A stretch of 64,000 bases of DNA from positions 12,008,606 to 12,072,605 of the forward strand of contig NC_090396.1 in assembly GCF_036365525.1 (NCBI RefSeq). The letters are read 5' to 3'. The notes under the pieces are model-generated. The model made no database searches, was not told the DNA's origin, and saw only the letters and a list, made by a program, of their open reading frames with translations. The number at the start of each line of letters is the position of its first letter. Position 1 is the stretch's first letter. The DNA comes from Heterodontus francisci (lineage: Eukaryota). The position numbers and the translations under genes were made by a program. Shown piece by piece: positions 35,511 through 60,545 of this stretch.

Positions 35511-35730
35511 TGTTCCAAATATAGCCCAGCACTGACCCATTGCAGAGTATTAATGGGACACGTGGCTGCTGTCTGTTACGAACAGGTAGTTATTTTTTTT
35601 TGTCTCAACAAATTTCTCTGTTTTTCCAACCACCTATTCGTAAACAGATTAGTGATTGAATTTTTCCCTCCCTTAAACCCTAATAATAAATGACCGCAAC
35701 ACCAACATGGTTGTTAGAATTAAATCAAAG

Positions 35731-36106
35731 ACCCTCACAGGCTTCATCCTCGACCCTCAGGCTTCATCCTCAACCCACACAGGCTTCACCCTCGACCCTC
35801 ACAGGCTTCACCCTCATCCCTCACAGGCTTCATCCTCGACCCTCACAGGCTTCACTCTCATCCCTCACAGTCTTCACCCTCGACCCTCACAGGCTTCACT
35901 CTCATCCCTCACAGTCTTCACCCTCGACCCTCACAGGCTTCACCCTCGACCCTCACAGGCTTCACTCTCAACCCTCACAGTCTTCACCCTCGACCTTCAC
36001 AGGCTTCACCCTCATCCCTCACAGGCTTCACCCTCGACCCTCACAGGCTTCACTCTCATCCTTCACAGGCTTCACCCTCGACCCTCACAGGCTTCACCCT
36101 CGACCC
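35731..36106. repeat. 22-bp minisatellite, about 17 copies
   Basis: Variants CCCTCACAGGCTTCACCCTCGA and CCCTCACAGGCTTCACTCTCAT. Confidence 0.93.
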
Positions 36107-36606
36107 CCACTGCACAGGTACCAAGTCACACGGGCTAATGCCGCCCCTCCCCCAACAATAAACTAAAACATGTCCAAGGTGGAGTTTTTGATCTATCTGA
36201 GGAATTTCCAGTTGGTGATGAGCAGGACTGAGGAGTGTTGTGAACAGATTGCACAAAGTGCCTTGGGCAGCTCGGGATCAATCCCTTCAGTCACGTTAGT
36301 TAATTTCCTGCTTTGATTGATATAAAATGTTTCCCCCATATTAATGAATAAAATGACTTACACTCCCTCCAATGGCCATTAACTCATTCCCATGAGGCAC
36401 ACTGTTCTGTGCCTACCTGAGGTGGTCCATACTCAGTGAACCTGAGTGTCCTTCACACTCACCTACAGCCCTTTCTTGAGAAGAGGCGGAATCTTGCTAA
36501 AGTGCAAACCTCCTGGACTAAAGTCACTGGTCCCTTACTAACAGAGATGGGAGTTATACAGTGGCAGGTATGCAAATTAAACAACAATCAGGTTTTCTTA
36601 TTCTAC

Positions 36607-36676: not shown

Positions 36677-36737
36677 TTAATGGTGGTTCCCTGGCAGGAT
36701 GGCTGCTGTGGTTCGGCGGAAAGTGTCTTGTCCAATT
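36677..36737 (-). CDS. AVD: Avidin-like protein, exon 4
   Basis: ttttctttgactcttAG acceptor; (R)IGQDTFRRTTAAILPGNHH* aligns with avidin RVGINIFTR. Confidence 0.85.
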
Positions 36738-36779
36738 CTAAGAGTCAAAGAAAAGATGTGAGTAGAAGGTATATCAACA

Positions 36780-38200
36780 GTCACACAGCACAGGAACAGG
36801 AGGAGGCCATTCAGCCCCTCGAGCCTGTTCTGCCATTCAATGAGGTCATGGCTGATCTGTATCTTAACTCCATCCACCTGCCTTGGGCTCCATATACTTT
36901 TATACCCTTGGCTGGCAAAAATCTATCAGTCTCTGATTTAAAATTATTAATGAGTTAGCGTCTATTGCTTTTTGTGGGGGAGAGTTCCAAATTTCTACCA
37001 CCCTTTACTCAAAGAAGTGTTTCCTAACTTCTCTCCTGAGTGACTTGGCTCTAATTTTAACATTGCGACCCCCTTGTCCTAGACTCTCCCACCAGTGGAA
37101 AAAGTTTCTCTCTGTCTACCCTATCAATCCCTTTCAAAATCCGAAAAACCTCAATCAGTGCTCAGATCAGAACAGACACCTGGAGCTTGGACAGGTCAGA
37201 GTGAGTAGAGACAGATAGTGCAGCCGATTGTGTGGCTGGTGAAATGGTGAAGGAGGGAGAGCTTTAGATTCCTGGAGCATTTGGACCAGTTCTGGGGGAG
37301 GTGGGACCTGTACAGGCAGGATGGGCTGCACCTCAACAGAGTCGGGACCAATATCGTGGCGGGGAGGTTTGCTAGTGCTGTTCAGCTAACTTGACGGGGG
37401 GATGGGAACCTGAGTGTGGATTCAGAGGAAGAAACAATTATAGTCGTGAGGAGGGATTATTTGGTAGAAGGATCATCAAATGAGGTCATATTGGTTGAAC
37501 TGAAGAACAAAAAAGGGGCAATCACACCACTGGGGCTGTGAGACCCCCCCCAAAGAATCAGAGGGAGATAGAAGAGCAAGTATGGAGGCAAATCTCTGAG
37601 AAGTGCAAAAACAATAGAGCAGAAATGGTGGGGCATTTCAACTACCCTAATATTAACTGGAATAAGTTCATTGTAAAAGGTACAGAGGGTACAGAATTCT
37701 TAAAATGTATCCAGGAGTTTTTTAGCCAGTATGGCAAGCCCAACAAGGGGCAGTTCTGGACTTAGTTTCAGGAAATGAATCCAGGCAAGTAGAAGGGGTA
37801 TTAGTGGCAGAGCAGTTTAGTGGTAGTGATCATAATTCAGCCAGATTTAGAATAGATATGGAAAGGGATAAAGATAGACTAGAATAGAAGTTTTAAATTG
37901 GGGAAAGGCCATTTTTACCAGCAGAGATATTAATAATCAGGGATTTAAAGTAATTGGTAGAAGGGTAAGAGTGGAGTTGAGATAATGTTTTCACCCAGAA
38001 GGTGGTGGGGGTCTGGAACTCGCTGCCTGGAAGGGTGGTACAGGCATTAAAACTTCCACCACATTTAAGAACATTTGGATAAGCACTTGAGGTGCTGTAA
38101 CCTACAGGACTATGGATCAAGAGCTGGAAGGTAGGGTTAGACTGAATAACTCTTTCTTGGCCAGCACAGACACTATGGGCTGAATGTAAATCTTTCTGTT
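36780..38200. mobile_element. CR1 fragments filling avidin intron 3
   Basis: Minus-strand CR1 tail ~36780-37150; plus-strand ORF1, endonuclease and tail remnants ~37225-38190. Confidence 0.7.
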
Positions 38201-38215
38201 TCTATGATGGCTCAC

Positions 38216-38336
38216 CTTGTTGATTTCCAGTCATCCTCTAGACTGGCAGCCAGAGATCTCAGCAGCCATGTGGTCTTCAAAACCTGCTGTCCATCCTTCA
38301 GCATCAGGCACTGACCAACCCAGCATGTAATGGAGC
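38216..38336 (-). CDS. AVD: Avidin-like protein, exon 3 (121 nt)
   Basis: ttattttcAG acceptor and AAG|GTGAGC donor; (G)SITCWVGQCLMLKDGQQVLKTTWLLRSLAASLEDDWKST(R) matches avidin STTVFTGQC...LKTMWLLRS...DDWKATR. Confidence 0.93.
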
Positions 38337-38526
38337 CTGAAAATAACAGGAAACACTCTTCACAGTCTGATCATTAATCCTCACCAATCACTCCATTCAC
38401 CCCTTCAGTGAAACTCAGAGCAGGTCCAGAGGTCCCACTCCGAGATGCTCAACACCTAGTTTCATTTTAAAGGACTCATTCACTCGCAAATTACTTGAAT
38501 TATTTAATGCTTTCGTCATACTGGTT

Positions 38527-38737
38527 AGCAGGAAAGGCAGGGAAAGGGAGGGAGGGAGATGAGAAAAGGAGACAGAGAGAGTAAGACAGAGAGGGAAAGT
38601 GAGGGAGAGATAAAGAGACAGAGAGAGGGGGTAAGAGAGGGAGGGAAAGAGAGAGAGGGAGGGAGACAGAGATAGAGCATAACAGAGAGAGAGCGCAAAA
38701 GAAAGGAAGCGAGAGAGGGATACAGAGAGACAGAGGA
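38527..38737. repeat. Purine-rich GA low-complexity tract
   Basis: Almost only G and A on the plus strand. Confidence 0.85.
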
Positions 38738-41705
38738 CAAAGAACAAAGAACAGTACAGCACAGGAACAGGCCATTCGACCATCCAAGCCTGCGCTGATC
38801 TTGATGCCTGTCTAAACTAAAACTGTCTGTACTTCCGGGGTCCGTATCCCTCTATTCCCATCCTATTCATGTATTTGTCAAGATGCCTCTTAAAGGTCGC
38901 TATCGTACCTGCTTCCACCACCTCCCCCGGCAGCAAGTTCCAGGCACTCACCACCCTCTGTGTAAAGAACTTGCCACGCACATCCCCTCTAAACTTTGCC
39001 CCTCGCACCTTAAACCTATGTCCCCTAGTAACTGACTCTTCTACCCTGGGAAAAAGCTTCTGACTATCCACTCTGTCCATGCCGCTCATAACTTTGTAAA
39101 CCTCTATCATGTCGCCCCTCCACCTCCGTCGTTCCAGTGAAAACAATCCGAGTTTATCCAACCTCTCCTCATAGCTAATGCCCTCCAGACCAGGCAACAT
39201 CCTGGTAAACCTCTTCTGTACCCTCTCCAAAGCCTCCACGTCCTTCTGGTAGTGTGGCGACCAGAATTGCACGCAATATTCTAAGTGTGGCCTAACTAAA
39301 GTTCTGTACAGCTGCAGCATGACTTGCCAATTTTTATACTCTATGCCCCGACCGATGAAGGCAAGCATGCCGTATGCCTTCTTGACTACCTTATCCACCT
39401 GCGTTGCCACTTTCAGTGACCTGTGGACCTGTATGCCCAGATCTCTCTGCCTGTCAATACTCCTAAGGGTTCTGCCATTTACTGTATACTTCCCACCTGC
39501 ATTAGACCTTCCAAAATGCATTACCTCACATTTGTCCGATTAAACTCCATCTGCCATTTCTCCGCCCAAGTCTCCAACCGATCTATATCCTGCTGTATCC
39601 TCTGACAATCCTCATCACTATCTGCAACTCCACCAACCTTTGTGTCGTCCGCAAACTTACTAGTCAGACCAGCTACATTTTCCTCCAAATCATTTATATA
39701 TACTACAAAGAGCAAAGGTCCCTGCACTGACCCTTGTGGAACACCACTAGTCACAGCCCTCCATTCAGAAAAGCACCCTTCCACTGATACCCTCTGTCTT
39801 CTATGACCGAGCCAGTTCTGTATCCATCTTGCCAGCTCACCTCTGATCCCGTGTGACTTCACTTTTTGTACCAGTCTGCCATGAGGGACCTAGTCAAAGG
39901 CTTTACTGAAGTCCATATAGACAACATCCACTGCTCTTCCTTCATCAATCATCTTCATCACTTCCTCAAAAAACTCAATCAAGTTAATGAAACACGACCT
40001 CCCCTTCACAAAACCATGTTGCCTCTCGCTAATATGTTCATTTGTTTCCAAATGGGAGTAAATCCTGTCCCAAAGAATCTTCTCCAATAATTTCCCTACC
40101 ACTGACGTAAGGCTCACCGGCCTGTAATTTCCTGGATTATCCTTGCTACCCTTCTTAAACAAAGCAACAACATTGGCTATTCTCCAGTCCTCTGGGACCT
40201 CACCTGTAGCCAATGAGGAGACAAAGATTTCTGTCAAGGCCCCAGCAATTTCTTCCCTTGCCTCCCTCAGTATTCTGGGGTAGATCCCATCAGGCCCAGG
40301 GGACTTATAGAGTCTTAGAGTCGTACAGCATGGAAACAGGCCCTTCGGCCCACCGCGTCCATGCCGACCATCATGCCTATCTATACTAATCCCACCTGCC
40401 TACATTAATTCCATATCCCTCTATGCCTTGCTCATTCAAGTCCCTGTCCAGATGCCTCTTAGATGTCGCTACTGTTCCTGCCTCCACCACCTCCTCTGGC
40501 AGCTCATTCCAGATACCCACTATTCTTTGTGTGAAAAATTTACCCCTTTGATCCCCTTTAAACCTCCTTCCTCTCACCTTAAATCTATGCCCTCTAGTTT
40601 TACTCACCCCTACCATGGGAAACAGACTCTGGCTATCTACCCTATCTATGCCTCTCATAATTTTATATACCTCTATCATGTCCCCTCTCAACCTCCTTCG
40701 CTCCAGGGAAAACAGACCCAGCCTATCCAATCTCTCTTTATAACTCAAGCCCTCCAAACCAGGCAACATCCTTGTGAATCTTTTCTGCACCCTCTCTAGC
40801 TTAATCACATTTTTCCTGTAGTGCGGTGACCAGAACTGCACACAGTACTCCAAATGCGGCCGAATCAACGTTATGTACAACTGTAACATGACGTCCCAAC
40901 TCTTGTACTCAATGCCTCTGCCGATGAAGGCAAGCATGCCATACTCCTTCTTCACCACCCTGTCTACCTGTGTTATCTACCTTAATGCTTTGCAAGACGC
41001 CCAACACCTCCTCCTTTTTGATAACGACATGACCCAGACTATCTACACTCCCTTCCCTCGACTCATCATCCACCAAGTCCTTCTGTTTGGTGAATACTGA
41101 TGCAAAGTACTCATTTAGTACATCGCCCATTTCCTCTCGCTCCACACATAGATTCCCTCCTCTGTCCTTGAGTGGGCCAACCCTTTCCCTGGTTACCCTC
41201 TTGCTCTTTATATACGTATAAAAAGCCTTGGGATTTTCCTTAATCCTGTTTGCCAATGACTTCTCATAACATCTTTTAGCCCTCCTGACTCCTTGCTTAA
41301 GTTGCTTCCTACTGTCTTTATATTCCTCAAGGGATTCGTCTGTTCCCAGCCTTCCAGCTCTTACAAATGCTTCCTTTTTCTTTTTGACTAGGCTCACAAT
41401 ATCCCTCGTTATCCAAGGTTCCTGAAACTTGCCAAACTTATCCTTCTTCCTCACAGGAACATGCTGGTCCTGGATTCTAATCAACTGACGTTTGAAAGAC
41501 TCCCACATGTCAGATGTTGATTTACCCTCAAACAGCCGCCCCCAATCTAAATTCTTCAGTTCCTGCCTAATATTGTTATAATTAGCCTTCCCCCAATTTA
41601 GCACCTTCACCCGAGGACTACTCGTATCCTTATCCACAAGTACCTTAAAACTTACGGAATTATGGTCACTGTTCCCAAAATGCTCCCCTACTGAAAGTTT
41701 GACCA
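38738..41705 (-). mobile_element. Young CR1 copy containing a nested 3' fragment of another CR1 family (40309-40972)
   Basis: RT ORFs between 38817 and 40237; nested piece bounded by TTAT at 40305-40308 and 40973-40976; the 5' end abuts the satellite. Confidence 0.9.
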
Positions 41706-44700
41706 CCCGTACGGTGGGGGATAACAATCGTGTAACTATCCCGTACGGTGGGGGATAACAATTGTGTAACTATCCCGTACAGTGGGGGGATAACAATCGT
41801 GTAAGTGTAACTATCCCGTACGGCGGGGGATAACAATCGTGTAACTATCCCATAGGGTGGGGAATAACAATCGTGTCAGTTTCCGATATGGCAGGGAATA
41901 ACAATCGTGTAAGTATCCGGTACGGCGGGGGATAACAATCGTGTAAGTGTAACTATCCCATACAGTGGGGGATAACAATTGTGTAACTGTCCCATACGGC
42001 GGGGGATAATAATCGTGTAACTATCCCGTACGATGGGGGATAATAATCGTGTAACTATCCCATACGGTGGGGAATAATAATCGTGTAACTATCCCGTACG
42101 GTGGGGAATAATAATCGTGTAACTATCCCGTACGGTGGGGGATAATAATCATGTAACTATCCCGTACGGTGGGGGATAACAATCGGGTAACTATCCCGTA
42201 CGGTGGGGGATAATAATCGTGTAACTATCCCGTACGGTGGGGGATAATAATCGTGTAACTATCCCATACGGTGGGGAATAACAATCGTGTCAGTTTCCGA
42301 TACGGCGGGGAATAACAATCGTGTAAGTATCCGGTACGGCAGGGGATAACAATCGTGTAAGTGTAACTATCCCATACAGTGGGGGATAACAATCGTGTAA
42401 CTATCCCGTACGCTGGGATAGCAATTGTGTAATTATCCCCGACGGTGGGTGATACAATCGCGCAACTATCCAGTATGGCGGGGGATAACAATCGTGTAAG
42501 TATCCTTTACGGTGGGGGATTACAATCGTGTAAGTATCCCGTATGGCGGGGGATAACAATCATGCAACTATCCCTGACGGTGGGTGATAACAATCGTGTA
42601 ACTAGCCCACACGGTGGGGATAAACAATTGTGTAGATATCCCGTATAGTGGGGGATAACACTCGTGTAACAATCCCGTACGGTGGGGGATAACAATTGTG
42701 TAATTATCCCGTATGGTGGGGGATAACAATCATGTAACTATCCCGTATAGTGGGGGATAACAATCGTGTAAGTATCCTGTACGGTGGGGGATAACAATCG
42801 TGTAACTATCCCGTGCGGTGGGTGATAACAATCGTGTAACTATCCCACACGGTGGGGGATAACAATTGTGTAACTATCCCACATGGTAGGGGATAACAAT
42901 CGTGTAACTATCCAATACAGTGGGTGATAACAATCGTGTAAGTATCCCATACGGTGGGGGATAACAATCGTAAAACTATCCCAAACGGCGGGGGATAACA
43001 ATCGTGTAAGTATCCCGTATGGCGGAGGATAACAATCGTGTAAGTGTAACTATCCCGTATGGTGGGAGATAACAATCGTATAAGTTTCCCATACGGCGGG
43101 GGGTACCAATCGTGTAACTATCCCGTACAGCAGGGGATAACAATCGCGTAAGTGTAACTATCCCTTAGGGTGGGGGATAACAATCCTGTAACTATCTCAC
43201 ATGGTGGGTGATAACAATTGTCTAACTATCCAGTGCGGTGGGTGATAACAATCATGTAATTATCCAACACGGCGGCGGGGGGGGGATAACAATCGTGTAA
43301 CTATCCCGTATGGCGGGAGATAACAATCGTGTAACTATCCCGTACGGTGGGGGATAACAATCGTGTAAGTGTAACTATCCCATACAGTGAGGGTTAACAA
43401 TCGTGTAACTATCCTGTATGGCGGGGGATAACAATTGTGTAACTGTCCCATACGGCAGGGGATAACAATTGTGTAAGTATCCGGTACGGCGGGGGATAAC
43501 AATCGTGTAAGTGTAACTATCCCATACAATGGGGGATAACAATCGTGTAACTATCCCGTATGGCGGGGGATAACAATTGTGTAACTGTCCCATACGGCGG
43601 GGGATAACAATTGGGTAACTATCCTGTACGGTGGGGGATAATAATCGTGTAACTACCCCGTACGGTGGGGGATAATAATCGTGTAACTATCCCGTACGGC
43701 GGGGATAACAATTGTGTAATTATCCCCTACGGTGGGTGATAACAATCGCGCAACTATCCCGTACGGCGGGGGGAAACAATCGTGTAAGTATCCCGTATGG
43801 CGGGGGATAACAATCGTGCAACTATCCCTGACGGTGGGTGATAACAATCGTGTAACTATCCCACACGGTGGGGGATAACAATTGTGTAACTATCCCGTAT
43901 AGTGGGGGATAACAATCGTGTAACAATCCCGTATAGTGGGGGATAACAATCGTGTAAGTATCCCGTACAGTGGGGGATAATAATCGTGTAACTATCCCGT
44001 ACAGCGGGGATTATAATTGTGTAATTATCCCGTACGGTGGGGGACAACAATCGTGTAACTATCCTGTATAGTGGGGGATCACAATCGTGTAAGTATCCTA
44101 TACGGTGGGGGATAACAATCGTGTACCTATCCCGTGCGGTGGGTGATAACAATCGTGTAACTATCCCACATGGTGGGGGATAACAATTGTGTAACTATCT
44201 CTCACGGTAGGGGATAACAATCGTGTAACTATCCAATACAGTGGGTGATAACAATCGTGTAAGTGTCCTGTACGGTGGGGGATAACAATCGTGTAACTAT
44301 CCCATACGGCGGGGGATAACAATCGTGTAAGTATCCCGTATGGCGGAGGATAACAATCGTGTAAGTGTAACTATCCCGTATGGTGGGAGATAACAATCGT
44401 GTAAGTTTCCCATACGGCGGTGGGTAACAATTGTGTAACTATCCCGTACGGTGGGGCATAACAATCGTGTAACTATCCCATACGGCGGGGGATAACAATC
44501 GTGTAACTATCCCGTACGGTGGGGGATAACAATCGTGTAACTATCCCATACGGCGGGGGATAACAATCGTGTAAGTATCCTGTACGGCAGGGGATAATAA
44601 TCGTGTAACTATCCTTTAGGTGAGGGATAACAATCGTGTAAGTTTCCTCGACAGCGGGGGATAACAATCGTGTAAGTGTAACTATCTTGTACAGTGGGGG

Positions 44701-47700
44701 ATAGCAATCGTGTAACTATCCCGTACGGCTGGGGATAATAATCGTGTAACTATTCCGTACGGTGGGGGATAACAATCGTGGAAGTGTAACTATCCTGTAC
44801 AGTGGAGGGTAACAATCGTGTAAGTATCCCGTAGGGCGGGGGATAACAATCGTGTAACCATCCTTTACGGTGGGGGATAACAATCGTGTAACTATCCCGT
44901 ATGGTGGGGGATAACAATCGTGTAACTATCCTGTACGGCGGGGGATAACAATCGTGTAAGTATCCCGTATAGCGGGGGATATCAATCGTGTAACTATCCC
45001 GTACAGTGGGGGATAACAATCGTGTAACTATCACGTATGGTGGGGGATAACAATCGTGTATGTATCCCGTACGGTGGGGGATAACAATCGTCTAAGTATC
45101 CCGTATGGCGGGGGATAACAATCGTCTAAGTATCCCGTATGGCGGGGGATAACAATCGTGTAAGTATCCCGTATGGCGGGGGATAACAATCGTGTAACCA
45201 TCCTTTACGGTGGGGGATAACAATCGTGTAAGTATCCCGTATGGCGGGGATAACAATCGTGTAACTATCCTTTACGGTGCGGGATAACAATCGAGTAAGT
45301 ATCCCGTACGGCGGGGGATAACAATCGTGTAAGTATCCCGTATGGCGGGGGATAACAATCGTGTAACTATCCCGTACGGTGGGGGATAACAATCGTGTAA
45401 CTATCCTTTACGGTGGGGGATGACAATCGTGTAACTATCCTTTACGGTGGGGGGTAACAATCGTGTAACTATCCCGTGTGGTGGGGGATAACAATCGTGT
45501 CAGTATCCCGTATGGCGGGGGAAAACAATCGTGTAACTATCCTTTACGGTGAGGAATAACAATCGTGTAACTATCCTGTATGGCGGGGGATAACAATCGT
45601 GTAACTATCCTTTACGGTGGGGGATGACAATCGTGTAACTATCCTTTACGGTGGGGGATAACAATCGTGTAACTATCCCGTATGGCGGGGGATAACAATC
45701 GTGTAACTATCCTTTACAGTGAGGGATAACAATCGGGTAACTATCCCGTACGGCGAGGAATAACAATCGTGTAACTATCCTGCACGGTGGGGGATAACAA
45801 TCGTGTAACTAACCCGTATGGCGGGGGATAACAATCGTGTAACTATCCCGTATGGCGGGGGATAACAATCGTGTAACTATCCCGTATGGCGGGGGATAAC
45901 GATCGTGTAACTATCCTTTATGGTGAGGGATAACAATCGTGTAACTATCCCGTACGGTGGGGGATAACAATCGTGTAACTATCCCGTACGGCGAGGGATA
46001 ACAATCGTGCAACTATCCCGTACGGTGGGGGATAACAATTGTACAATTAACCCGTACGGCAGTGGATTACAATTGTGTAACTATCTCGTACGGCAGTGGA
46101 TTACAATTGTGTAACTAACCCGTATGGCGGGGGATAACAATCGTGTAACTATCCCGTATGGCGGGGGATAACAATCGTGTAACTATCCCGTATGGCGGGG
46201 GATAACAATCGTGTAACTATCCCGTATGGCGGGGGATAACGATCGTGTAACTATCCTTTACGGTGAGGGATAACAATCGTGTAACTATCCCGTACGGCGT
46301 GGGGATAACAATCGTGTAACTATCTCGTACGGCAGTGGATTACAATTGTGTAACTATCCCTTACGGCGTGGGGATAACAATCGTGTAACTATCTCGTACG
46401 GTGGGGGATAACAATTGTGTAACTATCTCGTACGGTGGGGGATAACAATTGTGTAAGTATCCCATATGGCGGGGAATAATAATCGTGTAACTATCTCGTA
46501 CGGTGGGGGATAACAATCGTGTAACTATCCCGTACGGTGGGGGATAATAATCGTGTAACTATCCTTTATGGTGGGGGATAACAATCGTGTAAGTATCCCG
46601 TACGGCGGGGGATAACAATCGTGTAAGTATCCCGTGTGGCAGGGGATAACAATCGTGTAACTATCCCGTACGGTGGCCGATAACAATTGTATAATTATCC
46701 TGTACAGTGGGGTATAACAATCGTGTACTATCACATACGGTGGGTGTTAACAATTGTGTAACTATGCCGTATGGCAGGTGATAACAGTCCTGTAACATTC
46801 CCGGATGGTGGGGGATAACAATCGTGTAAGTATCCCGTGTGGCGGGGGATAGTAATCGTGTAACTATCCTGTACGGTGGGGGATAACAATCGTGTAAGTA
46901 TGCTGTACGGTGGGGGATAACAATTGTTTAAGTATCCCGTGAGGTGGGGGATAACAATCGTGTAAGTATCCCGTACGGTGGGGGATAACAATCGTGTAAG
47001 TATCCTGTGAGGTGGGGGATAACAATCGTGTAAGTATCCCGTATGGTGGGGGATACCAATCGTGTAAGTATCCTTTAGGTGAGGGATAACAATCGTGTAA
47101 GTTTCCTCTACAGCGGGGGATAACAACCTTGTAAGTGTAACTATCTTGTACAGTGGGGGATAGCAATCGTGTAACTATCCCGTACGGCAGGGGATAATAA
47201 TCGTGTAACTATTCCGTACGGTGGGGGATAACAATTGTGTAAGTGTAACTATCCTGTACAGTGGAGGATAACAATCGTGTAACTATCCCGTAGGGCGGGG
47301 GATATATTCGTGTAACTATTCCGTACGGTGGGGAATAATAATCGTTTAAGTATCTCGTACGGTGGGGGATATCAATCGTGTAACTATCCTTTACGCTGGG
47401 GGATAACAATCGCCTAAGTATCCCGTACGGCGGGGGATAACAATCGTGTAAGTATCCCGTATAGCGGGGGATATCAATCGTGTAACTATCCCGTACGGTG
47501 GGGGATAACAATCATGCAACCATCCCGTACGGTGGGGGATAACAATCGTCTGAGTATCCCGTACGGCGGGGGATAACAATCGTGTAAGTATCCCGTATGG
47601 CGGGGGATAACAATCGTGTAAGTATCCCGTATGGCGGGGGATAACAATCGTGTAACTATCCTTTACGGTGGGGGATGACAATCGTGTAACTATCCTTTAC

Positions 47701-50007
47701 GGTGGGGGGTAACAATCGTGTAACTATCCCGTGTGGCGGGGGATAACAATCGTGTCAGTATCCCGTATGGCGGGGGATAACAATCGTGTAACTATCCTTT
47801 ACGGTGGGGGATGACAATCGTGTAACTATCCTTTACGGTGAGGGATAACAATCGTGTAACTATCCCGTATGGCGGGGGATAACAATCGTGTAACTATCCT
47901 TTACGGTGGGGGATGACAATCGTGTAACTATCCTTTACGGTGGGGGATAACAATCGTGTAACTATCCCGTATGGCGGGGGATAACAATCGTGTAACTATC
48001 CTTTACAGTGAGGGATAACAATCGGGTAACTATCCCGTACGGCGAGGAATAACAATCGTGTAACTATCCTGCACGGTGGGGGATAACAATCGTGTAACTA
48101 TCCCGTATGGCGGGGGATAACAATCGTGTAACTATCCCGTATGGCGGGGGATAACGATCGTGTAACTATCCTTTATGGTGAGGGATAACAATCGTGTAAC
48201 TATCCCGTACGGTGGGGGATAACAATCCTGTAACTATCCCGTACGGCGAGGGATAACAATCGTGCAACTATCCCGTACGGTGGGGGATAACAATTGTACA
48301 ATTAACCCGTACGGCAGTGGATTACAATTGTGTAACTATCTCGTACGGCAGTGGATTACAATTGTGTAACTAACCCGTATGGCGGGGGATAACAATCGTG
48401 TAACTATCCCGTATGGCGGGGGATAACAATCGTGTAACTATCCCGTATGGCGGGGGATAACAATCGTGTAACTATCCCGTATGGCGGGGGATAACGATCG
48501 TGTAACTATCCTTTACGGTGAGGGATAACAATCGTGTAACTATCCCGTACGGCGTGGGGATAACAATCGTGTAACTATCTCGTACGGCAGTGGATTACAA
48601 TTGTGTAACTATCCCTTACGGCGTGGGGATAACAATCGTGTAACTATCTCGTACAGTGGGGGATAACAATCGTGTAACTATCTCGTACGGCAGTGGATTA
48701 CAATTGTGTAACTATCCCTTACGGCGTGGGGATAACAATCGTGTAACTATCTCGTACGGTGGGGGATAACAATCGTGTAACTATCTCGTACGGTGGGGGA
48801 TAACAATCGTGTAAGTATCCCATATGGCGGGGAATAATAATCGTGTAACTATCTCGTACGGTGGGGGATAACAATCGTGTACGTATCCCATATGGCGGGG
48901 AATAATAATCGTGTAACTATCCCGTACGGTGGGGGATAACAATCGTGTAAGTATCCCATATGGCGGGGAATAATAATCGTGTAACTATCTCGTACGGTGG
49001 GGGATAACAATCGTGCAACTATCCATTACGGTGGGGGATAATAATCGTGTAACTATCCCGTACGGTGGGGGATAATAATCGTGTAACTATCCTTTACGGT
49101 GGGGGATAACAATCGTGTAAGTATCCCGTGTGGCAGGGGATAACAATCGTGTAACTATCCCGTACGGTGGCCGATAACAATTGTATAATTATCCTGTACA
49201 GTGGGGTATAACAATCGTGTACTATCACATACGGTGGGTGTTAACAATTGTGTAACTATGCCGTATGGCAGGTGATAACAATCCTGTAACATTCCTGGAT
49301 GGTGGGGGATAACAATCGTGTAAGTATCCCGTGCGGCGGGGGATAGTAATCGTGTAACTATCCTGTACGGTGGGGGATAACAATCGTGTAAGTATGCCGT
49401 ACGGTGGGGGATAACAATCGTGTAAGTATCCCGTACGGTGGGGGATAATAATCGTGTAAGTATCCCGTGAGGTGGGGTATAACAATCGTGTAAGTATCCC
49501 GTACAGTGGGGGATAACAATCGTGTAAGTATCCCGTGAGGTGGGGGATAACAATCGTGTAGTATCCCGTGAGGTGGGGGATAACAATCGTGTAAGTATCC
49601 CGTACGGTGGGGGATACCAATCGTGTAAGTATCCCGTACGGTGGGGGATAACAATCGTGGAAGTATCCCGTGAGGTGGGGGATAACAATCGTGTAAGTAT
49701 CCCATACGGTGGGGGATAACAATCGTGTAACTATCCCCTACGGTGGGGGATAACAATTGCGTAAGTATCCCGTGAGGTGGGGGATAACAATCGTGTAAGT
49801 ATCCCGTACGGTGGGGGATAACAATCGTGTAACTATCCCCTACGGTGGGGGATCACAATCGTGTAACTATCCCGTGAGGTGTGGGATAACAATCGTGTAA
49901 GTATCCCCTTCGGTGGGGGATCACAATCGTGTAACTATCCCGTGAGGTGTGGGATAACAATCGTGTAAGTATCCCATACGGTGGGTGATTACAATCGTGT
50001 AACTATC
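41706..50007. repeat. 8.3-kb tandem satellite, 34-bp unit, about 240 copies
   Basis: Consensus TATCCCGTACGGTGGGGGATAACAATCGTGTAAC; 40-bp variants carry an extra GTAAGT; units are directly adjacent with no spacers. Confidence 0.97.
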
Positions 50008-50169
50008 ATCTCAGACCTTTCGTGATTTTGACAGCTCGATCAAATCTCTTTTAGGGAAAACAGCCCCAGCTTCTCCATGGTATTGTCATAATTGAAGTCC
50101 CTCATCTCTTGAACCATTCTTATAAATCTTTTCTGCACCCTCTCCAATGCCTTCACATTCTTCCCAAAG

Positions 50170-50415
50170 TGCAAGGGGTTTATTTAATATTCAGGGCTAT
50201 TTAATATTGAGGGTGGGTTAATATTGGAGTTAATTGTTATTGTGGTTTAATTAATCTTGGGTGTTGATTATTGGAGATTAATTTATATTGGTTGTTAATT
50301 AGAATGGGATTAATTGGTATTGGGTTATTTAATACTTGACTTATTTCATATTGAGTGTCATTTAATATTGGGTGTTAATTATTGGTTGTTAACTTTGGGG
50401 GTTTATTTGACATTG
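50170..50415. repeat. C-poor degenerate (ttaatattgg)-like tract, resuming at ~54782-54880
   Basis: Same composition on both sides of the 50416-54781 CR1 block. Confidence 0.65.
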
Positions 50416-53400
50416 GTTGCCTCTAAACAGTCAGGGAGAGATAGAGGAGCAGATATGTAGGCAAATCTCAGAGAGGTGTAAAAATAGTAGGGTAATAATA
50501 GTAGGGGATTTCAACTTACCTAATATCAACTGGGATAGTGCAAAAGGCTTAAAGGGGATGGAATTCTTAAAGTGCATCCAGGAGAGCTTTTTGAGCCAGC
50601 ACGTAGAAAGTCCTACAAGAGAAGGGGCGGTACTGGACCTAATCTTAGGTAATGAAGCCGGATAAGTGGTAGAAGTGTCAGTGGGGGAACATTTCAGGGA
50701 TAGTGACCATAACTCTGTAAGATTTAAGGTAGTTTTGGAAAAGGACAAAGATGGACTGGAAATAAAGGTACTGAATTGGGGGAAGGCAGATTTCAACATG
50801 ATTAACAGGATCTGGCCAAAGTGGACTGGGAGCAGCTACTCGTAGGAAAATCTACATCAGACCAGTGGGAGCCATTCAAAAAGGAAATAGTGAGAGTTCA
50901 GGGCCAACATGTTCCCATAAAGGTGAAGGGTAGGACCAACAGGTCAGGGAACCCTGGATGTCAAGGGATCTACCCCAGAATACTGAGGGAGGCAAGGGAG
51001 GAAATTGCTGGGGCCTTGACAGAAATCTTTGTATCCTCATTGGCTACAGGTGAGGTCCCAGAGGACTGGAGAATAGCCAATGTTGTTCCTTTGTTTAAGA
51101 AGGGTACAAAGGATAATCCAGGAAATTATAGGCCGGTGAGTTTTACGTCAGTGGTGGGGAAATTATTGGAGAGGATTCTTCAGGACAGGATTTACTCCCA
51201 TTTGGAAACAAATGAACTTATTAGCGAGAGGCAGCATGGTTTTGTGAAGGGGAGGTCATGTCTCACTAACTTGATTGAGTTTTTTGAGGAAGTGAGGAAG
51301 ATGATTGATGAAGAAAGGGCAGTGGATGTTGTCTAAATGGACTTCAGTAAAGCCTTTGACAAGGTCCCTCATGGCAGACTGGTACAAAAGGTGAAGTCAC
51401 ACGGGATCAGAGGTGAGCTGGCAAGATGGATACAGAACTGGCTCAGTCATAGAAGACAGAGGGTATCAGTGGAAGGGTGCTTTTCTGAATGGAGGGCTGT
51501 GACTAGTGGTGTTCCGCAGGGATCAGTGCTGGGATCTTTGCTGTTTGCAGTATATATAAATGATTTGGAGGAAAATGTAGCTGGTCTGATTAGTAAGTTT
51601 GCGGACGACACAAAGGTTGGTGGAGTTGCGGATAGTGATGAGGATTGTCAGAGGATACAGCAGGATATAGATCGGTTGGAGACTCGGGCGGTGAAATGGC
51701 AGATGGAGTTTAATCCGGACAAATGTGAGGTAATGCATTTTGGAAGATCTAATACAGGTGGGAAGTATACAGTAAATGGCAGATCCCTTAGGAGTATTGA
51801 CGGGCAGAGAGATCTGGGCGTACAGGTCCACAGGTCACTGAAAATGGCAATGCAGGTGGATAAGGTAGTCAAGAAGTCATACGGCATGCTTGCCTTCATC
51901 GGTCGGGGCATAGAGTATAAAAATTGGCAAGTCATGCTGCAGCTGTACAGAACCTTAGTTCGGCCACACTTGGAATATTGCGTACAATTCTGGTCGCCAC
52001 ACTACCAGAAGGGTGTGGAGGCTTTGGAGAGGGTACAGAAGAGGTTTACCAGGATGTTGCCTGGTCTGGAGGGTATTAGCTATGAGGAGAAGTCGGATAA
52101 ATTCAGATTGTTTTCACTGGAACGACGGAGGTCGAGGGGCGACATGATAGAGGTTTACAAAGTTACGAGTGGCATGGACAGAGTGGATAGTCAGGAGCTT
52201 TTTCCCAGGGTGGAAGAATCAGTTACTGGGGGTTACTAGGTTTAAGGTGCGAGGGGCAAAGTTTAGAGGGGATGTGCGAGGGTGGTGAGTGCCTGGAACT
52301 TGCTGCCGGGGGAGGTGGTGGAAGCAGGTACGATAGCGACGTTTAAGAGGTGTCTTGACAAATACATGAACAGGAAGGGAATAGAGGGATACGGACCCCG
52401 GAAGTGCAAAAGGTTTTAGTTTAGACAGGCATCAAGATCGGCGCAGGCTTGGTGGGCCGAATGGCCTGTTCCTGTGCTGTACTGTTCTTTGTTATTTGAT
52501 TGGATCAGGAAAAATAAAGGAGGCAAATTCAGAGCGCTGAAAACAGCGGAGGCTCTAGAGGAGTATAGAAAGTGTAGTGGGGTACTAAAAAAAGTAATTA
52601 GGAGAGCGAAGAGGGGGGCGTGAAAAAACACTGGTGGGCAAGAGAAAGGTAAATCCCATGGCGTTTTATAAGTATATTAAGGGTAAGAGGATAACCAGGG
52701 AAAGAGTAGGGCCCATTAGGGACCAAAGTGGCTTTCTATGTGTGGAGCCAGAGGACGTGGGTGAGGGTTTAAATGATTATTTCTCATTTCTGTTCACTAT
52801 AGAGAAGGACGATGTAGGTGTAGAGATTTTATTTATTTAGAGATACAGCACTGAAACAGGCTCTTCAGCCCACCGAGTCTGTGCTGACCAACAACCACCC
52901 ATTTATACTAATCCTACATTAATCCCATATTCCCTACCACATCCCCACCGTTCACCTACCACCTACCTACACTCGGGGCAATTTATAATGGCCAATTTAC
53001 CTATCAACCTGCAAGTCTTTGGCTGTGGGAGGAAACCGGAGCACCCGGCGGAAACCCACACAGTCACAGGGAGAACTTGCAAACTCCACACAGGCAGTAC
53101 CCAGAATTGAACTCAGGTCATTGGAGCTGTGAGGCTGCAGTGCTAACCACTGTGCCGCCAGGGAGGGGGATTGTGATATACTTGAACAAATTAGCATTGA
53201 AGGGAAAGAGGTATTTAGCGGTTTTAGTGGGCTTAAAAGTGGATAAATCCCCAGGCTGTTATGTGAGGCAAGGGAGGAAATTGCAGGGGCTCTGACACAA
53301 ATTTTCAATCCTTTCTGGCCACAGGAGAGGTCCCAGAGGACTGGAGGACAGCGAATGTGGTGCCATTATTCAAGAAGGGTAGCAGGGATAAACCAGATAA

Positions 53401-54781
53401 TTACAGGCCAGTGAGTCTAACGTCAGTGGTCGGGAAACTATTGGAAAAAATTCTGAGGGACAGGATTAATCTCCACTTGGAGAGGCAGGGATTAATCAGG
53501 GATAGTTAGCATGGCTTTGTCAGGGGGAGATCGTGACTAACAAATTTGATTGAATTTTTCGAGGAGGTGACTAGATGTGTAGATGAGGGTAAAGCAGTTG
53601 ATGTAGTCTACATGGACTTCAGTAAGGTGGGAGTTTTTGATAAGGTCCCGCATGGGAGATTGGTTAAGAAGGTAAGAGCCCATGGGATCCAGGGCAATTT
53701 GGCAAATTGGATCCAAAATTGGGTTAGTGGCAGGAGGCAGAGGGTGATGGTCAAGGGTTGTTTTTGTGAGTGGAAGCCTGTGACCAGTGGTGTAACGCAG
53801 GGATCGGTGCTGGGACCCTTGCTGTTTGTAGTGTACATTTAGACGTGAATATAGGAGGTATGATCAGTAAGTTCGCAGATGACACGAAAATTGGTATTGT
53901 CGTAAATAGTGAGGAGGAAAGCCTTAGATTACAGGATGATATAGATGGGCTGGTAAGATGGGCAGAGCAGTGGCAAATGGAATTTAATCCTGAGAAGTGT
54001 GAGATGATGCACTTTGGGAGGACTAACAAGGCAAGGGAATATACAGTGGATGGTAGGACCCAAGGAAGTACAGAGGGTCATAGTGACCTTGGTGTACTTG
54101 TCCATAGATCACTGAAGGCAGCAGCACAGATAGATAAGGTGGTTAGGAAGGCATATGGGATACTTGCCTTTATTAGCCGAGGCATAGAATATAAGAGCAG
54201 GGAGGTTATGATGGAGCTGTATAAAATGCTAGTTAGGCCATAGCTGGAGTACTGTGTACAGTTCTGGGCACCACACTATAGGAAGGATGTGATTGCACTG
54301 GAGAGGGTTCAGAGGAGATTCACCAGGATGTTGCCTGGGCTGGAGCATTTCAGCTATGAAGAGAGATGGGATAGTCTAGGGTTGTTTTGCTTAGAGTGGA
54401 GAAGGCTGAGGGGGGACCTGATTGAGGTATACAAATTATGAGGGGCATTGATAGATTAGATAGGAAGAAACATTTTCCCTTAGCAGAGGGGTCAATAACC
54501 AGGGGGCATAGATTTAAGGTAAGGGGCAGGAGGTTTAGAGGGGATTTGAGGAAAAATCTTTTCACCCAGAGTGTGGTTGGAATCTGGAACACACTGCCTG
54601 AAGGGGTGGTAGAGGCAGGAACCCTCACAATACTTAAGAAGTATTTAGATGAGCACTTGAAACACCATAGAATACACGGCTATGGGCCAAGTGCTGGAAA
54701 ATGGAATTGGAATAGATAGATGCTTGATGGCTGGCATGGACACGATGGGCTGAAGGGCCTGTTTATGTGCTGTAAAACTCT
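50416..54781 (+). mobile_element. CR1 (endonuclease to 3' UTR) with a nested young CR1 (~50965-52497) and a SINE
   Basis: VGDFNLPNINW endonuclease motif; RT ORFs 51337-52239 and 53546-54719; two separate tails. Confidence 0.9.
52827..53159 (-). mobile_element. tRNA-derived V-SINE (HE1-like)
   Basis: Reverse complement of the 2739-3097 family. Confidence 0.88.
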
Positions 54782-54945
54782 ATTAATATGGGGTTATTTA
54801 ATATTGAAGTTAATTAAAATGGGGCTAAATTATATTAGTTAATTAATTTGGAGTTAATTAATATTGGAGATTATTTCATTTTGCTGAGTTATAATTTCAC
54901 TTGCTCCCAGGTTTCCCAGTGGTCCCCTCTCTGACACGCTGTTAC

Positions 54946-55159
54946 CTCCAGCCCATGCTGTAGACATGCTGAATGTTGGCTCTTTGCCATTATTCCTGAT
55001 GCCGGTCACTTGGGCCTGTCTCTCGGGTCCGGCCTCTTCCTTCGCTGCCTCCACCGCTGTCAAGTAACGGCCGTTCAGTATGAAGTCCTTGGCCTCGGTC
55101 AGGTAGAAGACGGAGCCCAGTTCATTCCGCCAGAACCCGGTCATGTTACAGCTGCCCGC
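54946..55159 (-). CDS. AVD: Avidin-like protein, exon 2 (214 nt)
   Basis: ttttcttttccAG acceptor and GAG|GTAACA donor; AGSCNMTGFWRNELGSVFYL...GRYLTAV...EPTFSMSTAWAG matches avidin CSLTGKWTNDLGS...GTYITAV...QPTFGFTVNW. Confidence 0.93.
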
Positions 55160-55609
55160 CTGGAAAAGAAAACAAGCCAAGGAGAGGAATGGGCACAGAC
55201 AGCAAATACCCACAGTGGGTAAACACCAACAAGGGAAATAGCAGCAGGGGGTAAACACCTAAAGGGGGCAATTATCAACAGAGGACAAAAACTGACAGGG
55301 AGCAAACATTGACCAAGGTTCGACTACAGTGCAAACTGTGCACTGTGAACCATGAGCCAAATTTCCTTTCAGGTCAAGTACTGAGATTGATAGAAACGGT
55401 TCACTCTCGAGCCTCTTCCTAAACTCCAACCCTCGCATAACCCCTTCCCCAATGACAGGGACAAATATCAACAAGGGTGAAACCCCAACAGAGATAAACA
55501 ATGCCAGAGGGTAAACACTGAAGGGGGTAAACAATGATGGGGCATATACCCAGAAGGAGCAAACACCAACTGGGGAAACAGCAACAGAGGAACTAAAATG
55601 GGGACTTAC

Positions 55610-55672
55610 CAAGATGCCAGGGGCAAGAAAAGCCAACAGGAAGAGAGAGAGTGCAGAGATCTGTCTCTCCAT
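55610..55672 (-). CDS. AVD: Avidin-like protein, exon 1 (signal peptide)
   Basis: acaATGg start context; MERQISALSLFLLAFLAPGIL hydrophobic leader; TTG|GTAAGT donor in phase 0, matching exon 2. Confidence 0.85.
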
Positions 55673-55708
55673 TGTGAATGCTCGGTGTAACTGCTCCAAA
55701 GTTCAGCT

Positions 55709-55715
55709 CTTTATG
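55709..55715 (-). promoter_or_regulatory. Putative TATA-like box of the avidin gene
   Basis: CATAAAG about 40 nt upstream of the ATG. Confidence 0.4.
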
Positions 55716-56513
55716 GAGAATCTGCTGCGTATTCAGAATCAATGCTGGCAGCAAACCAATTCAAATCACATCTGCTGACTTGCAGTTTTGCTGCTTAGCT
55801 CATTGGAAAATATCCACATTTCAGGCTGAGTTTAAATTATGAAATATTTTGTCTTTGAGTATGAGACCTTGAGGAGAACTTCAATATCTCGCTGGTCTTT
55901 AATTAAAAATATTTATAGCACAGCATTTAACATAAAAAATACAGTCACAAAGCTCACTGATTTTCCACTCTCAATCCCCCCCAGACTCTGATCCCTCTGC
56001 ACTCACATGCTCCTCCCCTGACTCTCAATTACCTCCCTACCCGCACCGCCCCCCCTTTTCTCACTTACCTGAGGGCTGCTATTAGTGTCGCAGCTGCCTG
56101 ATGTTAAATTACATTTCCATTGTTTTATTTGTCTTTTATGTTGCTGTATTTTCCCCATCTCCCAACACAGAAAGAGGCCAAAATTGTGCCGTTGTTTGTC
56201 ACTACCTGAAATTCCCTCAACAACAGCAACTTGCATTTACATCATGCCTTTAGTCATAGAGTCATTACAGCACAGAATAAGGCTATTCGGCCCATCAAGT
56301 CTATGCTGGCTCTCTGTAGAGCAATCCAGTCAGTTCCATTCCTCCACTCTATCCCTCTAGCCCAACAATAACATAGATTTATACAGCGCCTTTAACAGAA
56401 TAAAACAGCTCCAGGTGCCTCACAGGAGCATTATAAAACAAACTATGACACCCATCCACATAAGGAGATATTAGGTGTGATGACAAAAGCTTAGCTGAAG
56501 AGATAGCTTTTAC

Positions 56514-57552: not shown

Positions 57553-58169
57553 TGTGAGAATAAGAAATACTGTAATGTTGTTTCTACAGCTTGTGGAAAG
57601 TTACCAAGAAGTCATTTGTGCACAACATAATGAAATCACTGAAAAAGAGAACTGATAAGGATATGTCAGTGGAGACCTTAAGACAGTACATCACTGACAA
57701 AGAATTGATCAGGGTATGTAAGTGGAGACCTTGGGACAGTACATCACTTAAAAATTGTGCTTAGGCAGATAACAGAGAAACAGCAAGAGTTAGAACAACG
57801 GATGTAGTGAATAAGAAACTGCCCCACTAAGATAAAGGCTGACAGCTGCAAGTTAAAACACATAATGGAGAGCCAAATAAGGTAAAACAAAAACAAGAGT
57901 TAGGGGCTAGAAAGTTGGAGTAGGGGGAGAAGTAAACAGAGGAGGAGACTGTAGCAACCATAGGATAGGTTAGTGTCATAATACGTTATAACCAATAATG
58001 TAAAATAAAGGCGTGGACAAATGGATTTGTATTGTATAAACATGAACTGAATATGTTGATCGATGTGCCTGCTTGTTGGACACCCGATCTTGCAAGACCG
58101 TTAAATAAACTTACTTCTTCAGAGTTTGACTTGGTGTAAATTATTATTAAGTGGGCTACGTTTCTCACA
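57553..58169 (+). repeat. ERV 5' LTR (617 bp)
   Basis: Direct repeat of 62164-62831; two ~55-bp U3 repeats. Confidence 0.95.
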
Positions 58170-58171
58170 AT

Positions 58172-58189
58172 TGGGGGCTCATCCGGGAT
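58172..58189 (+). promoter_or_regulatory. Primer binding site for tRNA-Pro
   Basis: TGGGGGCTCATCCGGGAT, one mismatch to the MLV-type PBS TGGGGGCTCGTCCGGGAT. Confidence 0.92.
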
Positions 58190-58492
58190 CTCTTCATCAT
58201 TGACGGGACCGCGGCCGACGACAGACGAGAAGACGCGTCCCGTTAATTTAAAAACGGTCTCGTTTCTCTCGTTGGTAGCGGACCCGAGTAATCGACTGAA
58301 AATGATCCTAGGGAAGTCACTCTGAACGAGTATTTAGTGCGGCAGGTACACACGTGAAGTCAGGCAACTCAGTGCACGGACCAAGGTAAGAAAAACGACT
58401 TTTAAGTATTATCTTGGTGACTTATGGTTAACTGTAGGATGAGACCTTCTAAGTACCAAAAGTCCTTGAGGAGTGAATTTTACAGTCCTGCA

Positions 58493-58658
58493 GTATAAGA
58501 CCCTTCAGCTAGGAGGTGAGTACTGTAGGGTATAAGACCCTTCAGTTAGGAGGTGAATACCGTAAGGTATAAGACCCTTCAGCTAGGAGGTGAATACTGT
58601 AAGGTATAAGACCCTTCAGCTAGGAGGTGAATACCGTAGGGTACAAGACCCTTCAGTT
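58493..58658 (+). repeat. 37-bp tandem repeat (about 4.5 copies) in the ERV leader
   Basis: GTATAAGACCCTTCAGCTAGGAGGTGAATACTGTAAG-like units starting at 58493, 58530, 58567, 58604 and 58641. Confidence 0.93.
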
Positions 58659-58662
58659 AACC

Positions 58663-59153
58663 ATGGGAAATAAATCGTCTAAAAAGGAAGACGATGGGAG
58701 ACAAGGAAAGTCTGCCGGCAACATCCCTCCAGAAAGTCCATTGGGACGGATGTTGGAGTATTGGGATTTAGAGTCAAAAACCAAGGAGAAAAAGACCCAA
58801 ATATGATCTAAGGACAGCAAGAAGGACCACCCCTAAACCCGACGATAACGATGACGATAGAGACAGAGAGTCTCCTAAGACAATGATGCCGTTGAGAGAG
58901 GTACCAATAGGAAATAATGAAATTGGATTTGTTAGTGCACCATTAACGTCAGGAGAGGTAAGAGTGTTTAAAAAGGAAATGAAAGTCCTCGTAGGAGACC
59001 CCTGAAAATTTGGGAAAGAGAAAACCCTCCCGGGGTAGGGGGAAACGAACCAGCTGAACAGAAATACCCTAATAAAGACCCGCAGTGGCAGAACAATAAT
59101 ATCGGCCATAGGGGCCAGATGAAAGACCTTAGAAATCTGATAGTAAAAGGCAT
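58663..59153 (+). pseudogene. gag: Internally deleted gag (matrix start and capsid fragments)
   Basis: MGNKSS myristoylation motif and IPPESPLGRMLEYW, then a stop; PLREVPIG...FVSAPLTSGEVRVFKKEMK and LRNLIVKGI capsid pieces. Confidence 0.8.
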
Positions 59154-59831
59154 TGTTGTAAACAAGTAGTTGAAGCCCCTGCAAAACTTATGCCTTTACA
59201 GAGTTACCGCAGGCCCCTCTTATGGCACAAGCAGGCGACATATTGAGTGCGACCCCTCTGGGTGTTGAAGGCTGTTTCTAGACAAATATAGACCATTAAA
59301 GGCACCTAGGTGGGATCAAGGGAATGATTTTTAAAAATGTTTTGAAGAATCAAAGGGGGGACTGTGAACAGAATTTAGATTTTAGAATTTTTAAGAACAG
59401 AATTACATGGGAACATTTAAGATAAAACAATTAATCAGTCATGTATTGCTAACAAGCTAGCTGACTTCATAACTTCAGGGCTGCAGAGGCAACTTGGCCT
59501 TGCAGCTGGTACAGCGAGAGAGAGAGAGAGAGACATTGTACTTCAACAGCACTCTTCTTATCACCCAGACATGACAAAGTTAGAATGAAAAACATACCGA
59601 CCAGGCTAATACACGCCCCCTTGTTAGAGGATGGCTCAGCCTACCCTTCTGATTCAGCAGTTGCTGAGTTTTTTTATATTTGCTTTTAGGCATGGTACAA
59701 TGCTTAATGGGAAATATAGCAAAGTTAGGAATAGTAGCTTTGCTGAGCTTTGATTCTAAGTGGCAGAAACCACAATGAAATAGCTAGAAGGGATGGCCAG
59801 AGTGTGTGCAAGCTGTGGCAACCACAGCACT

Positions 59832-60485
59832 TCAGACCAAGGAAGTCATTTTACCTTGAAGCTATTACAAGAAATAGTTAGGGGATTGGGAATCCAATGG
59901 GACTTCCATACCCCTTGGCACCCTCCCTCTTCAGGGCGGGTGGAAAGAATGAATCAGGCCTTAAAGAAACACCTGTCCAAACTGATACTTGAAACAAGGT
60001 TACCCTGGACAAAATGTTTACCTATAGCGATACTCAGAATTCGGACAGCCCCTAGAAAAGATGTGGGACTGTCCCCCTATGAAATGCTATTCGGATTACC
60101 CTATATGGGAACCAGGGGCGAGATGCCAACCTTAGAAACTAAAGATTCGTTTCTAAAGAACTATATACTGGCGTTGTCTTCCTCATTGTCATTCCTCAGG
60201 AAGCAAGGCCTGTTAGCACAGACCCCACCTCTCGAATTTGCAGTGCACAAGATCCAACCAGGAGATTGGGTTCTGGTGAAATCATGGAAAGAGACTAAAC
60301 TACAACTGAACTGGGAAAGACCATACCAGACTCTCCTAACCACTGAAACAGCCATAAGAACGGCAGAAAGAGGTTGGACCCACTACACAAGAATCAAGGG
60401 GCCGGTACAACCCCCGGCCGAGGAAGGAACTTGGACAACCGAATTAACAGAAGAACCATTGAAAATAAAGCTAAAAAGGCTATGA
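59832..60485 (+). pseudogene. pol: C-terminal half of integrase (protease, RT and RNase H absent)
   Basis: SDQGSHFT...HTPWHPPSSGRVERMNQALK...GLSPYEMLFG...IQPGDWVLVK; the zinc finger and first catalytic Asp are missing. Confidence 0.9.
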
Positions 60486-60545
60486 GTAACGAACTTTTTT
60501 TTTAATATAGCGGCGCGAGCGCGGAAATACTGTCTGTAATATTGT

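Follow-up and report, generated by a model that had tools for sequence, protein, structure and literature searches.

A spliced avidin gene of the horn shark Heterodontus francisci and its predicted biotin-binding product

Introduction

Zebavidin, the avidin of zebrafish (PDB 4BJ8; PMC3811995), binds biotin with a Kd of 3.7 nM, and the same report links its loops to a much faster biotin off-rate and finds its mRNA enriched in gonad and ovum. A 2026 study (PMC13425791) catalogued 130 fish avidins, and its Table S2 contains 18 Chondrichthyes rows in two clades, including the white shark protein C. carcharias_1. According to that study, zebavidin is reported as most abundant in yolk, a possible role in biotin supply being suggested, and avd-knockout zebrafish develop and breed normally and resist S. 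agalactiae normally (one pathogen in one model).

The locus considered here lies in a window of 64,000 nucleotides of horn shark DNA (contig NC_090396.1, forward-strand positions 12,008,606 to 12,072,605), and all positions below are counted from its first letter. A sequence-only reading of the window had described a complete avidin-family gene spread over repeats and had mentioned no characterised avidin from sharks. The implied novelty fails, since the horn shark avidin is already known: RefSeq contains an annotation of it, and PMC13425791, in whose four supplements the name Heterodontus has no mention, catalogues its counterparts in sharks. As a discovery, the gene with its published shark clade thus amounts to little. 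The narrower point stands, in that no biochemical study or binding measurement of any shark avidin was found in the literature covered, which leaves out most subscription journals, and none was found there on XP_067914767.1, a database annotation.

Results

Organization of the gene

The coding sequence occupies the minus strand and is split into four exons that total 459 nt and join into a stop-ended frame of 152 amino acids, over a gene span of 18,996 nt. The elements of the locus are given below in the direction of transcription, X5 being one of the public runs described further on.

55912..55917, minus strand: candidate TATA box (TATAAA), lying some 30 nt before position 55885, where contig X5 record 23 has its 5' end
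55673..55885, minus strand: probable untranslated 5' part of exon 1, spanned by X5 record 23, a spliced contig of a related organism
55610..55672, minus strand: coding exon 1, 63 nt, with the start codon and a hydrophobic signal peptide (residues 1-21)
55160..55609, minus strand: intron 1, 450 nt, GT-AG, phase 0
54946..55159, minus strand: exon 2, 214 nt, encoding the first strands of the barrel, with C25, the N26 sequon, N33, L35, S37, Y53, T55, V57 and W90
38337..54945, minus strand: intron 2, 16,609 nt, GT-AG, phase 1, repeats making up at least 90%
41706..50007, no strand assigned: tandem array within intron 2, rich in CpG, with 242 copies of a 34-bp unit at 83% matches
38216..38336, minus strand: exon 3, 121 nt, with S94, T96, C97, W98, C102, W116, L118 and W129
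36738..38215, minus strand: intron 3, 1,478 nt, GT-AG, phase 2, 71% matching other repeats
36677..36737, minus strand: coding exon 4, 61 nt, encoding D137 in the last strand, then a short tail and the stop codon TAA
36593..36676, minus strand: probable 3' UTR, with AATAAA at 36612-36607

AG/GT ends are found at every exon border. The four exons, canonical splice sites and 152-residue protein proposed from the letters were reproduced exactly, in their positions as well as in translation. Exon 3 is missing from the open reading frame track because the open frame around it is just 52 aa long. Since exons 2 and 3 each match the Pfam Avidin profile alone (E 4.3e-9 and 7.6e-10, respectively), the gene is not a chance assembly. 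The signal peptide was assigned from hydropathy, a helix at residues 3-15 of the model and the alignment with the chicken avidin signal peptide; the C-terminal pattern of exon 4 also occurs in 15 orthologues.

The repeat share was estimated by a crude self-comparison, in which a nucleotide was counted when it belonged to an array or matched elsewhere in the window or in the stretch of contig C44 considered below. By this measure, the repeat share is at least 90% in intron 2 and 71% in intron 3, and zero in intron 1. The description of a gene spread over repeats therefore holds for introns 2 and 3 but not for intron 1 (0 of 450 nt matched). Intron 2 includes the 34-bp-unit array, 8,302 bp long, as well as reverse-transcriptase-like ORF fragments.

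Upstream of the coding region, the TATAAA motif gives a weak hint of a TATA box, as contigs cannot mark a transcription start. The probable 5' UTR contains three upstream ATGs, one of which opens a 17-codon uORF. Another motif, CATAAA at 55715, was excluded as a TATA box because the spliced contig extends 170 nt beyond it.

Assignment to the avidin family

The four-exon join is letter-identical to RefSeq XP_067914767.1 of Heterodontus francisci (152 aa). With exon 2 as the query, this protein and XP_067914768.1, of the same species, were both found at 100% identity. Against Pfam Avidin (PF01382), the protein scored 96.7 bits, the cut-off being 24, with an E-value of 1.5e-27 and coverage of profile positions 1-115 of 116. 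A match to the Chimallin profile (E 0.043, below cut-off) was regarded as noise. The claim of a complete spliced avidin-family gene in a cartilaginous fish is supported.

When the full protein was searched, 17 matches were obtained among 108 candidates, namely 15 elasmobranch records (both horn shark isoforms included), one frog and one parrot. Full-length orthologues are 62-82% identical to the horn shark protein. The white shark orthologue XP_041073212.1 (C. carcharias_1), at 82%, shares the cysteine pair, the sequon and the pocket. C25 and C102 are present, and identity to the C44 paralogue is 31%; on these sequence features, the horn shark gene is a clade-1 (zebavidin-like) avidin.

A second avidin gene was observed on the minus strand of contig C44, between 21128306 and about 21119100. 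Its four exons have GT-AG borders and form an open frame of 160 aa, exon 4 having been chosen from two pattern candidates. By eye, its sequence resembles clade 2 as given in PMC13425791. The clade-1 cysteine pair is missing from it. Ser stands in place of Asn12 and His in place of Leu99, the Thr35 position is altered, and the L3,4 loop is shorter. Due to these pocket changes and the missing cysteines, biotin binding by this protein appears doubtful. A second clade-2 copy, like the 2A/2B pair of the white shark, was not found in the genome search (one match among 12 candidates).

Splicing of the transcript

Twelve public runs contain the exon 2 stretch; their RNA status is guessed or unlabelled and they carry no tissue label. 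The contigs of four of these runs were compared with the 5' part of the gene (54400-56000). Intron 1 was skipped in contigs of two of the four (X2 and X5, from two studies), which join 55610 to 55159, and depth was zero across 55210-55587 in all four. Exon 2 was wholly covered by contigs in three. Furthermore, an X8 contig carried, at the exon 2 donor, a loose end identical to letters 2-31 of exon 3 (30 letters), so that the joint 54946/38336 is present in at least one of the four runs, among the loose ends listed. Both of these junctions had been predicted from the letters. We infer the joint between exons 3 and 4. If these two exons follow, the three longest exon 2 contigs, by length, end at 36593 (X5) and 36606 (X2), beside the AATAAA at 36612, and at 36672, just past the stop codon. 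Such projected ends would be compatible with the joining of exons 3 and 4 and with the 3' UTR.

The second RefSeq protein, XP_067914768.1 (138 aa), corresponds by exact match to a version of the same gene in which exon 3 is skipped. It is a frameshifted half-barrel without W116, W129 and C102 and, judging from its sequence, is likely unable to fold or to bind.

In a search of the 6.0-Gb genome, four exon-sized matches at two loci were found among the six best candidates scored; one exon-2 and one exon-3 match lie on the contig of the window itself. A DNA retrocopy is thus an unlikely source of the spliced contigs. At least five coding differences separate the gene from organism B among the rows listed, two of them synonymous (exon 2) and three conservative (signal peptide), too few for a selection test.

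Predicted fold and tetramer

An AlphaFold2 model calculated from 18 sequences (mean pLDDT 79.8, pTM 0.71) contains seven strand elements of three or more residues according to DSSP, and an antiparallel avidin beta-barrel is predicted. Of the solved relatives with a single domain, zebavidin 4BJ8 scores best (E 4.6e-34); an engineered dual-chain avidin scores higher through its two domains. The model superimposes on zebavidin with an rmsd of 1.5 A, 49% identity and a target TM of 0.91-0.94.

Four copies modelled together scored 0.89, the best control reaching 0.00; as avidin tetramers have been solved, the score may merely reproduce known structures. In microbes, 21 of 30 solved pairs but none of 23 single chains attained the score mark; in animals, 7 of 16 pairs did. 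The runs agreed in at least 97% of contacts, with pLDDT of at least 85. In the four-copy model, residues 129-135, Trp129 among them, contact residues 35, 57 and 118 of the neighbouring chain. The model indicates a likeness to solved avidin tetramers, not binding.

The biotin pocket

Pocket residues were mapped by hand from the alignments with solved relatives and the contact lists of PMC3811995. The sequence-only reading had listed 11 chicken avidin contacts and two cysteines, and all of them have identical counterparts in the alignment. Its list had omitted the chicken contacts that differ, i.e. Phe72 (absent), Ser73 (Gly92 here), Thr38 (Glu58), Thr40 (Ala60), Phe79 (Trp98) and Asn118 (Asp137). 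Relative to the ring contacts listed for zebavidin, 11 of 11 are kept (N33, L35, S37, Y53, T55, V57, T96, W98, W116, W129 and D137), ten of them identical, the exception being zebavidin S76, replaced by T96 as in chicken avidin. Five of the eight valerate contacts are identical, while S39, T40 and A43 of zebavidin correspond to A59, A60 and E63.

Across the 15 elasmobranch orthologues (the 18-row alignment without the frog, parrot and query rows), no substitution is seen at 10 of the 11 ring positions, W129 among them, compared with 56 of the 120 positions of the mature protein. A permutation test gives p 0.002, although this value overstates independence because the orthologues are related. 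The single variable ring position is Tyr53, which is Phe in four of the 15 orthologues (carpet sharks).

The L3,4 and L5,6 loops have zebavidin lengths and align without gaps. As in zebavidin, the Phe72/Ser73 pair of chicken-type very-high-affinity avidins is lacking: Phe72 falls in a gap of one residue, and Ser73 is replaced by Gly92. Because the loops are of the zebavidin type, tied to the faster off-rate, and because zebavidin itself has a Kd of 3.7 nM (PMC3811995), the affinity of the horn shark protein is predicted, by analogy, to be around nanomolar and not femtomolar. Given the three differing valerate contacts, it could be lower or higher.

Discussion

Taken as a whole, the evidence shows an intact spliced avidin gene, whose product would probably be a secreted homotetramer that binds biotin at around nanomolar strength; its likeliest role is to store or buffer biotin in the egg. 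By analogy with zebavidin, the protein would be secreted with cleavage of the signal peptide near Ala22, and a Cys25-Cys102 disulfide and a glycan on Asn26 would form. According to the model, four beta-barrels would assemble so that the Trp129 region of each subunit reaches residues 35, 57 and 118 of the neighbouring pocket. If zebavidin is a guide, the biotin ring would be hydrogen-bonded by Asn33, Ser37, Tyr53, Thr55, Thr96 and Asp137, and the valerate tail would be gripped more weakly, the Phe72/Ser73 loop being shortened. Service in the egg is the least certain step.

Concerning this role, an egg biotin store is our leading candidate, put forward tentatively from analogy; antimicrobial sequestration is possible at a somewhat lower confidence, and any other role is unlikely. 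As we read it, the zebrafish knockout favours neither the yolk store nor the antimicrobial role as essential. Orthologues are present in white shark, basking shark, smooth-hound, devil ray, stingray and sawfish. These species are live-bearing and have yolky eggs without a long-lived egg case. The persistence of the gene among them therefore fits a yolk role better than defence of an egg case.

The main alternative is a tight trap of the chicken type, released in secretions of the oviduct or the shell gland, or where mucosa is inflamed, that would starve biotin-dependent microbes. We consider it rather unlikely. All 11 listed chicken contacts are kept, and chicken avidin is induced by infection (PMC13425791). 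In addition, the core residues F95, M97, M114 and E116, to which the weakness of the zebavidin tetramer is attributed (PMC3811995), are T115, L117, I134 and Q136 here; as two of these four lie nearer to chicken avidin, the tetramer could be more stable. However, the zebavidin-like L3,4 and L5,6 loops without Phe72/Ser73 are tied to faster biotin release (PMC3811995), and the zebrafish knockouts, with one pathogen and in one model, resist S. agalactiae normally (PMC13425791). Moreover, the computed pI of mature orthologues ranges from 5.1 to 8.0 (n=7), so that conservation does not extend to a strongly basic surface. Of the functional biotin-sequestering antimicrobial or egg protein suggested at the outset, the kept pocket residues are upheld, as are the likely secretion and likely functionality, while the antimicrobial part is weakened by the loops and by the knockout.

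It is improbable that the barrel has been retained for another small ligand or for weak biotin binding. The differing valerate contacts speak for it, as does the Phe of four carpet sharks at Tyr53, which indicates that the pocket tolerates change, but the remaining ring set is invariant in sharks, skates and rays and matches that of proteins with measured biotin binding. Finally, a pseudogene, or exons of separate copies wrongly joined across 16.6 kb of repeats, is very improbable and largely refuted already: the very long repeat-filled intron 2, the frameshifted exon-3-skipped isoform in RefSeq and the inferred exon 3-4 joint would suit it, but the frame has no stop or frameshift, exons 2 and 3 each have a single match on the contig (six candidates scored), contigs splice exons 1-2 and 2-3, the two changes in exon 2 relative to organism B are synonymous (a tiny count) and full-length orthologues exist.

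The Cys97 codon also occurs in the loose end of the X8 contig, which rules out an assembly error. Residue 97 lies in the large 1-4 interface of the model, and the contacts 95-99' and 117-117' place the symmetry axis beside it; the pair 97-97' is absent from the best 25 contact pairs of the four-copy model. A Cys97-Cys97' disulfide near the two-fold axis, which would yield covalent dimers within the tetramer and a naturally cross-linked avidin, is quite unlikely. A literature search for a disulfide at this position returned nothing relevant and gives no evidence either way. A cross-linked or moderate-affinity avidin could find minor use in biotechnology.

The zebrafish knockout being without phenotype, the horn shark protein is a usable reagent for finding out what fish avidins do. 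Since the clade is found in egg-laying as well as live-bearing elasmobranchs, tissue expression and affinity could separate yolk storage from defence.

Comparison with known avidins

Compared with zebavidin, the horn shark gene has four exons of similar size (87/211/120/42 nt in zebavidin, 63/214/121/61 nt here), with intron 2 the longest in both, and its product is alike in sequence (49% identity), modelled fold (rmsd 1.5 A) and loop lengths. It differs in extending over 19 kb instead of 3 kb, in having A59/A60/E63 for S39/T40/A43 and in its core, T115/L117/I134/Q136 for F95/M97/M114/E116 (PMC3811995). The counterpart of Cys97 is Ala77, at the 1-4 interface of zebavidin (PMC3811995), and the nearby Cys75 of zebavidin, which stays free, corresponds to position 95, two residues before the horn shark cysteine.

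With chicken avidin (1AVD, 7ZN1), the protein shares the predicted fold (rmsd 1.8 A to 1AVD, 36% identity), the signal peptide, the cysteine pair of the disulfide, the ring contacts and, as W129, the counterpart of Trp110, which in the model comes from the neighbouring subunit. It differs in that Phe72 is absent and Ser73 is Gly, Phe79 is Trp, Asn118 is Asp, Ile117 is Gln and Met96 is Thr, and an affinity lower than that of chicken avidin is predicted from its sequence. Among C. carcharias_1 and the other chondrichthyan clade-1 avidins, the horn shark protein is set apart by Cys97, this residue being Ser in all 15 orthologues.

A second avidin gene in the horn shark genome

Besides the avidin gene of the window, a second, clade-2-like avidin gene was found on another contig stretch (C44) of the same genome.

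G000:C44:21128306-21119100 (handles L005 and L006), minus strand: four GT-AG exons, open 160-aa frame

The two horn shark avidins share 31% identity. In the C44 protein, several biotin contacts are altered, among them Asn12 to Ser and Leu99 to His (chicken avidin numbering), and the L3,4 binding loop is short. This avidin may bind biotin weakly or not at all. A long, retroelement-like insertion is present in intron 3 of the C44 gene.

Transcript and probable 5' UTR of the window avidin

In RefSeq isoform X2 (XP_067914768.1), position 54946 is joined directly to 36737 and exon 3 is left out. This skipping shifts the reading frame, with a stop at 36598, within the last exon, and the predicted product would be a half-barrel of 138 aa. 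The probable 5' UTR includes the following uORF, together with two further tiny ones.

55819-55766, minus strand: 17-codon uORF in the frame of the avidin start, closed by a stop

Repeats and other coding sequences in the window

The avidin start is preceded, at a distance of some 2 kb, by an endogenous retrovirus-like remnant.

About 57600-62420, plus strand: retrovirus-like remnant
59784-60485, plus strand: its integrase C-terminal domain
60540-62144, plus strand: its env-like open frame of 534 codons (Pfam TLV_coat, E 1.2e-10)

Tandem repeats with similar 53-bp units, one at 57635 and the other at 62246, are possible markers of the remnant's two LTRs. LINE-type reverse-transcriptase fragments were detected in tandem and at many other sites of the window, with similar ones inside avidin intron 2.

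25630-28623, plus strand: tandem LINE-type fragments (Pfam RVT_1, E 1.1e-35 for 25630-27006)

Half of this intron is occupied by a CpG-rich tandem array of 8.3 kb, in which the CpG count is several-fold above that of most of the window; two other arrays were observed.

41706-50007: 34-bp unit
35730-36110: 22-bp unit
20159-20355: 32-bp unit

Finally, two near-identical RING and B-box (TRIM-type) exons in opposite orientation look like an inverted duplication, with a stop and roughly 200 additional bases splitting the plus-strand copy.

14274-15059, minus strand: TRIM-type exon
18999-19992, plus strand: second copy

A pocket substitution in carpet sharks

Position 53 of the window protein, equivalent to the biotin contact Tyr33 and otherwise conserved, is Phe in all four aligned carpet-shark orthologues (P0010, P0011, P0013 and P0014). 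The whale-shark row of a published fish avidin table also gives Phe at this position (PMC13425791).
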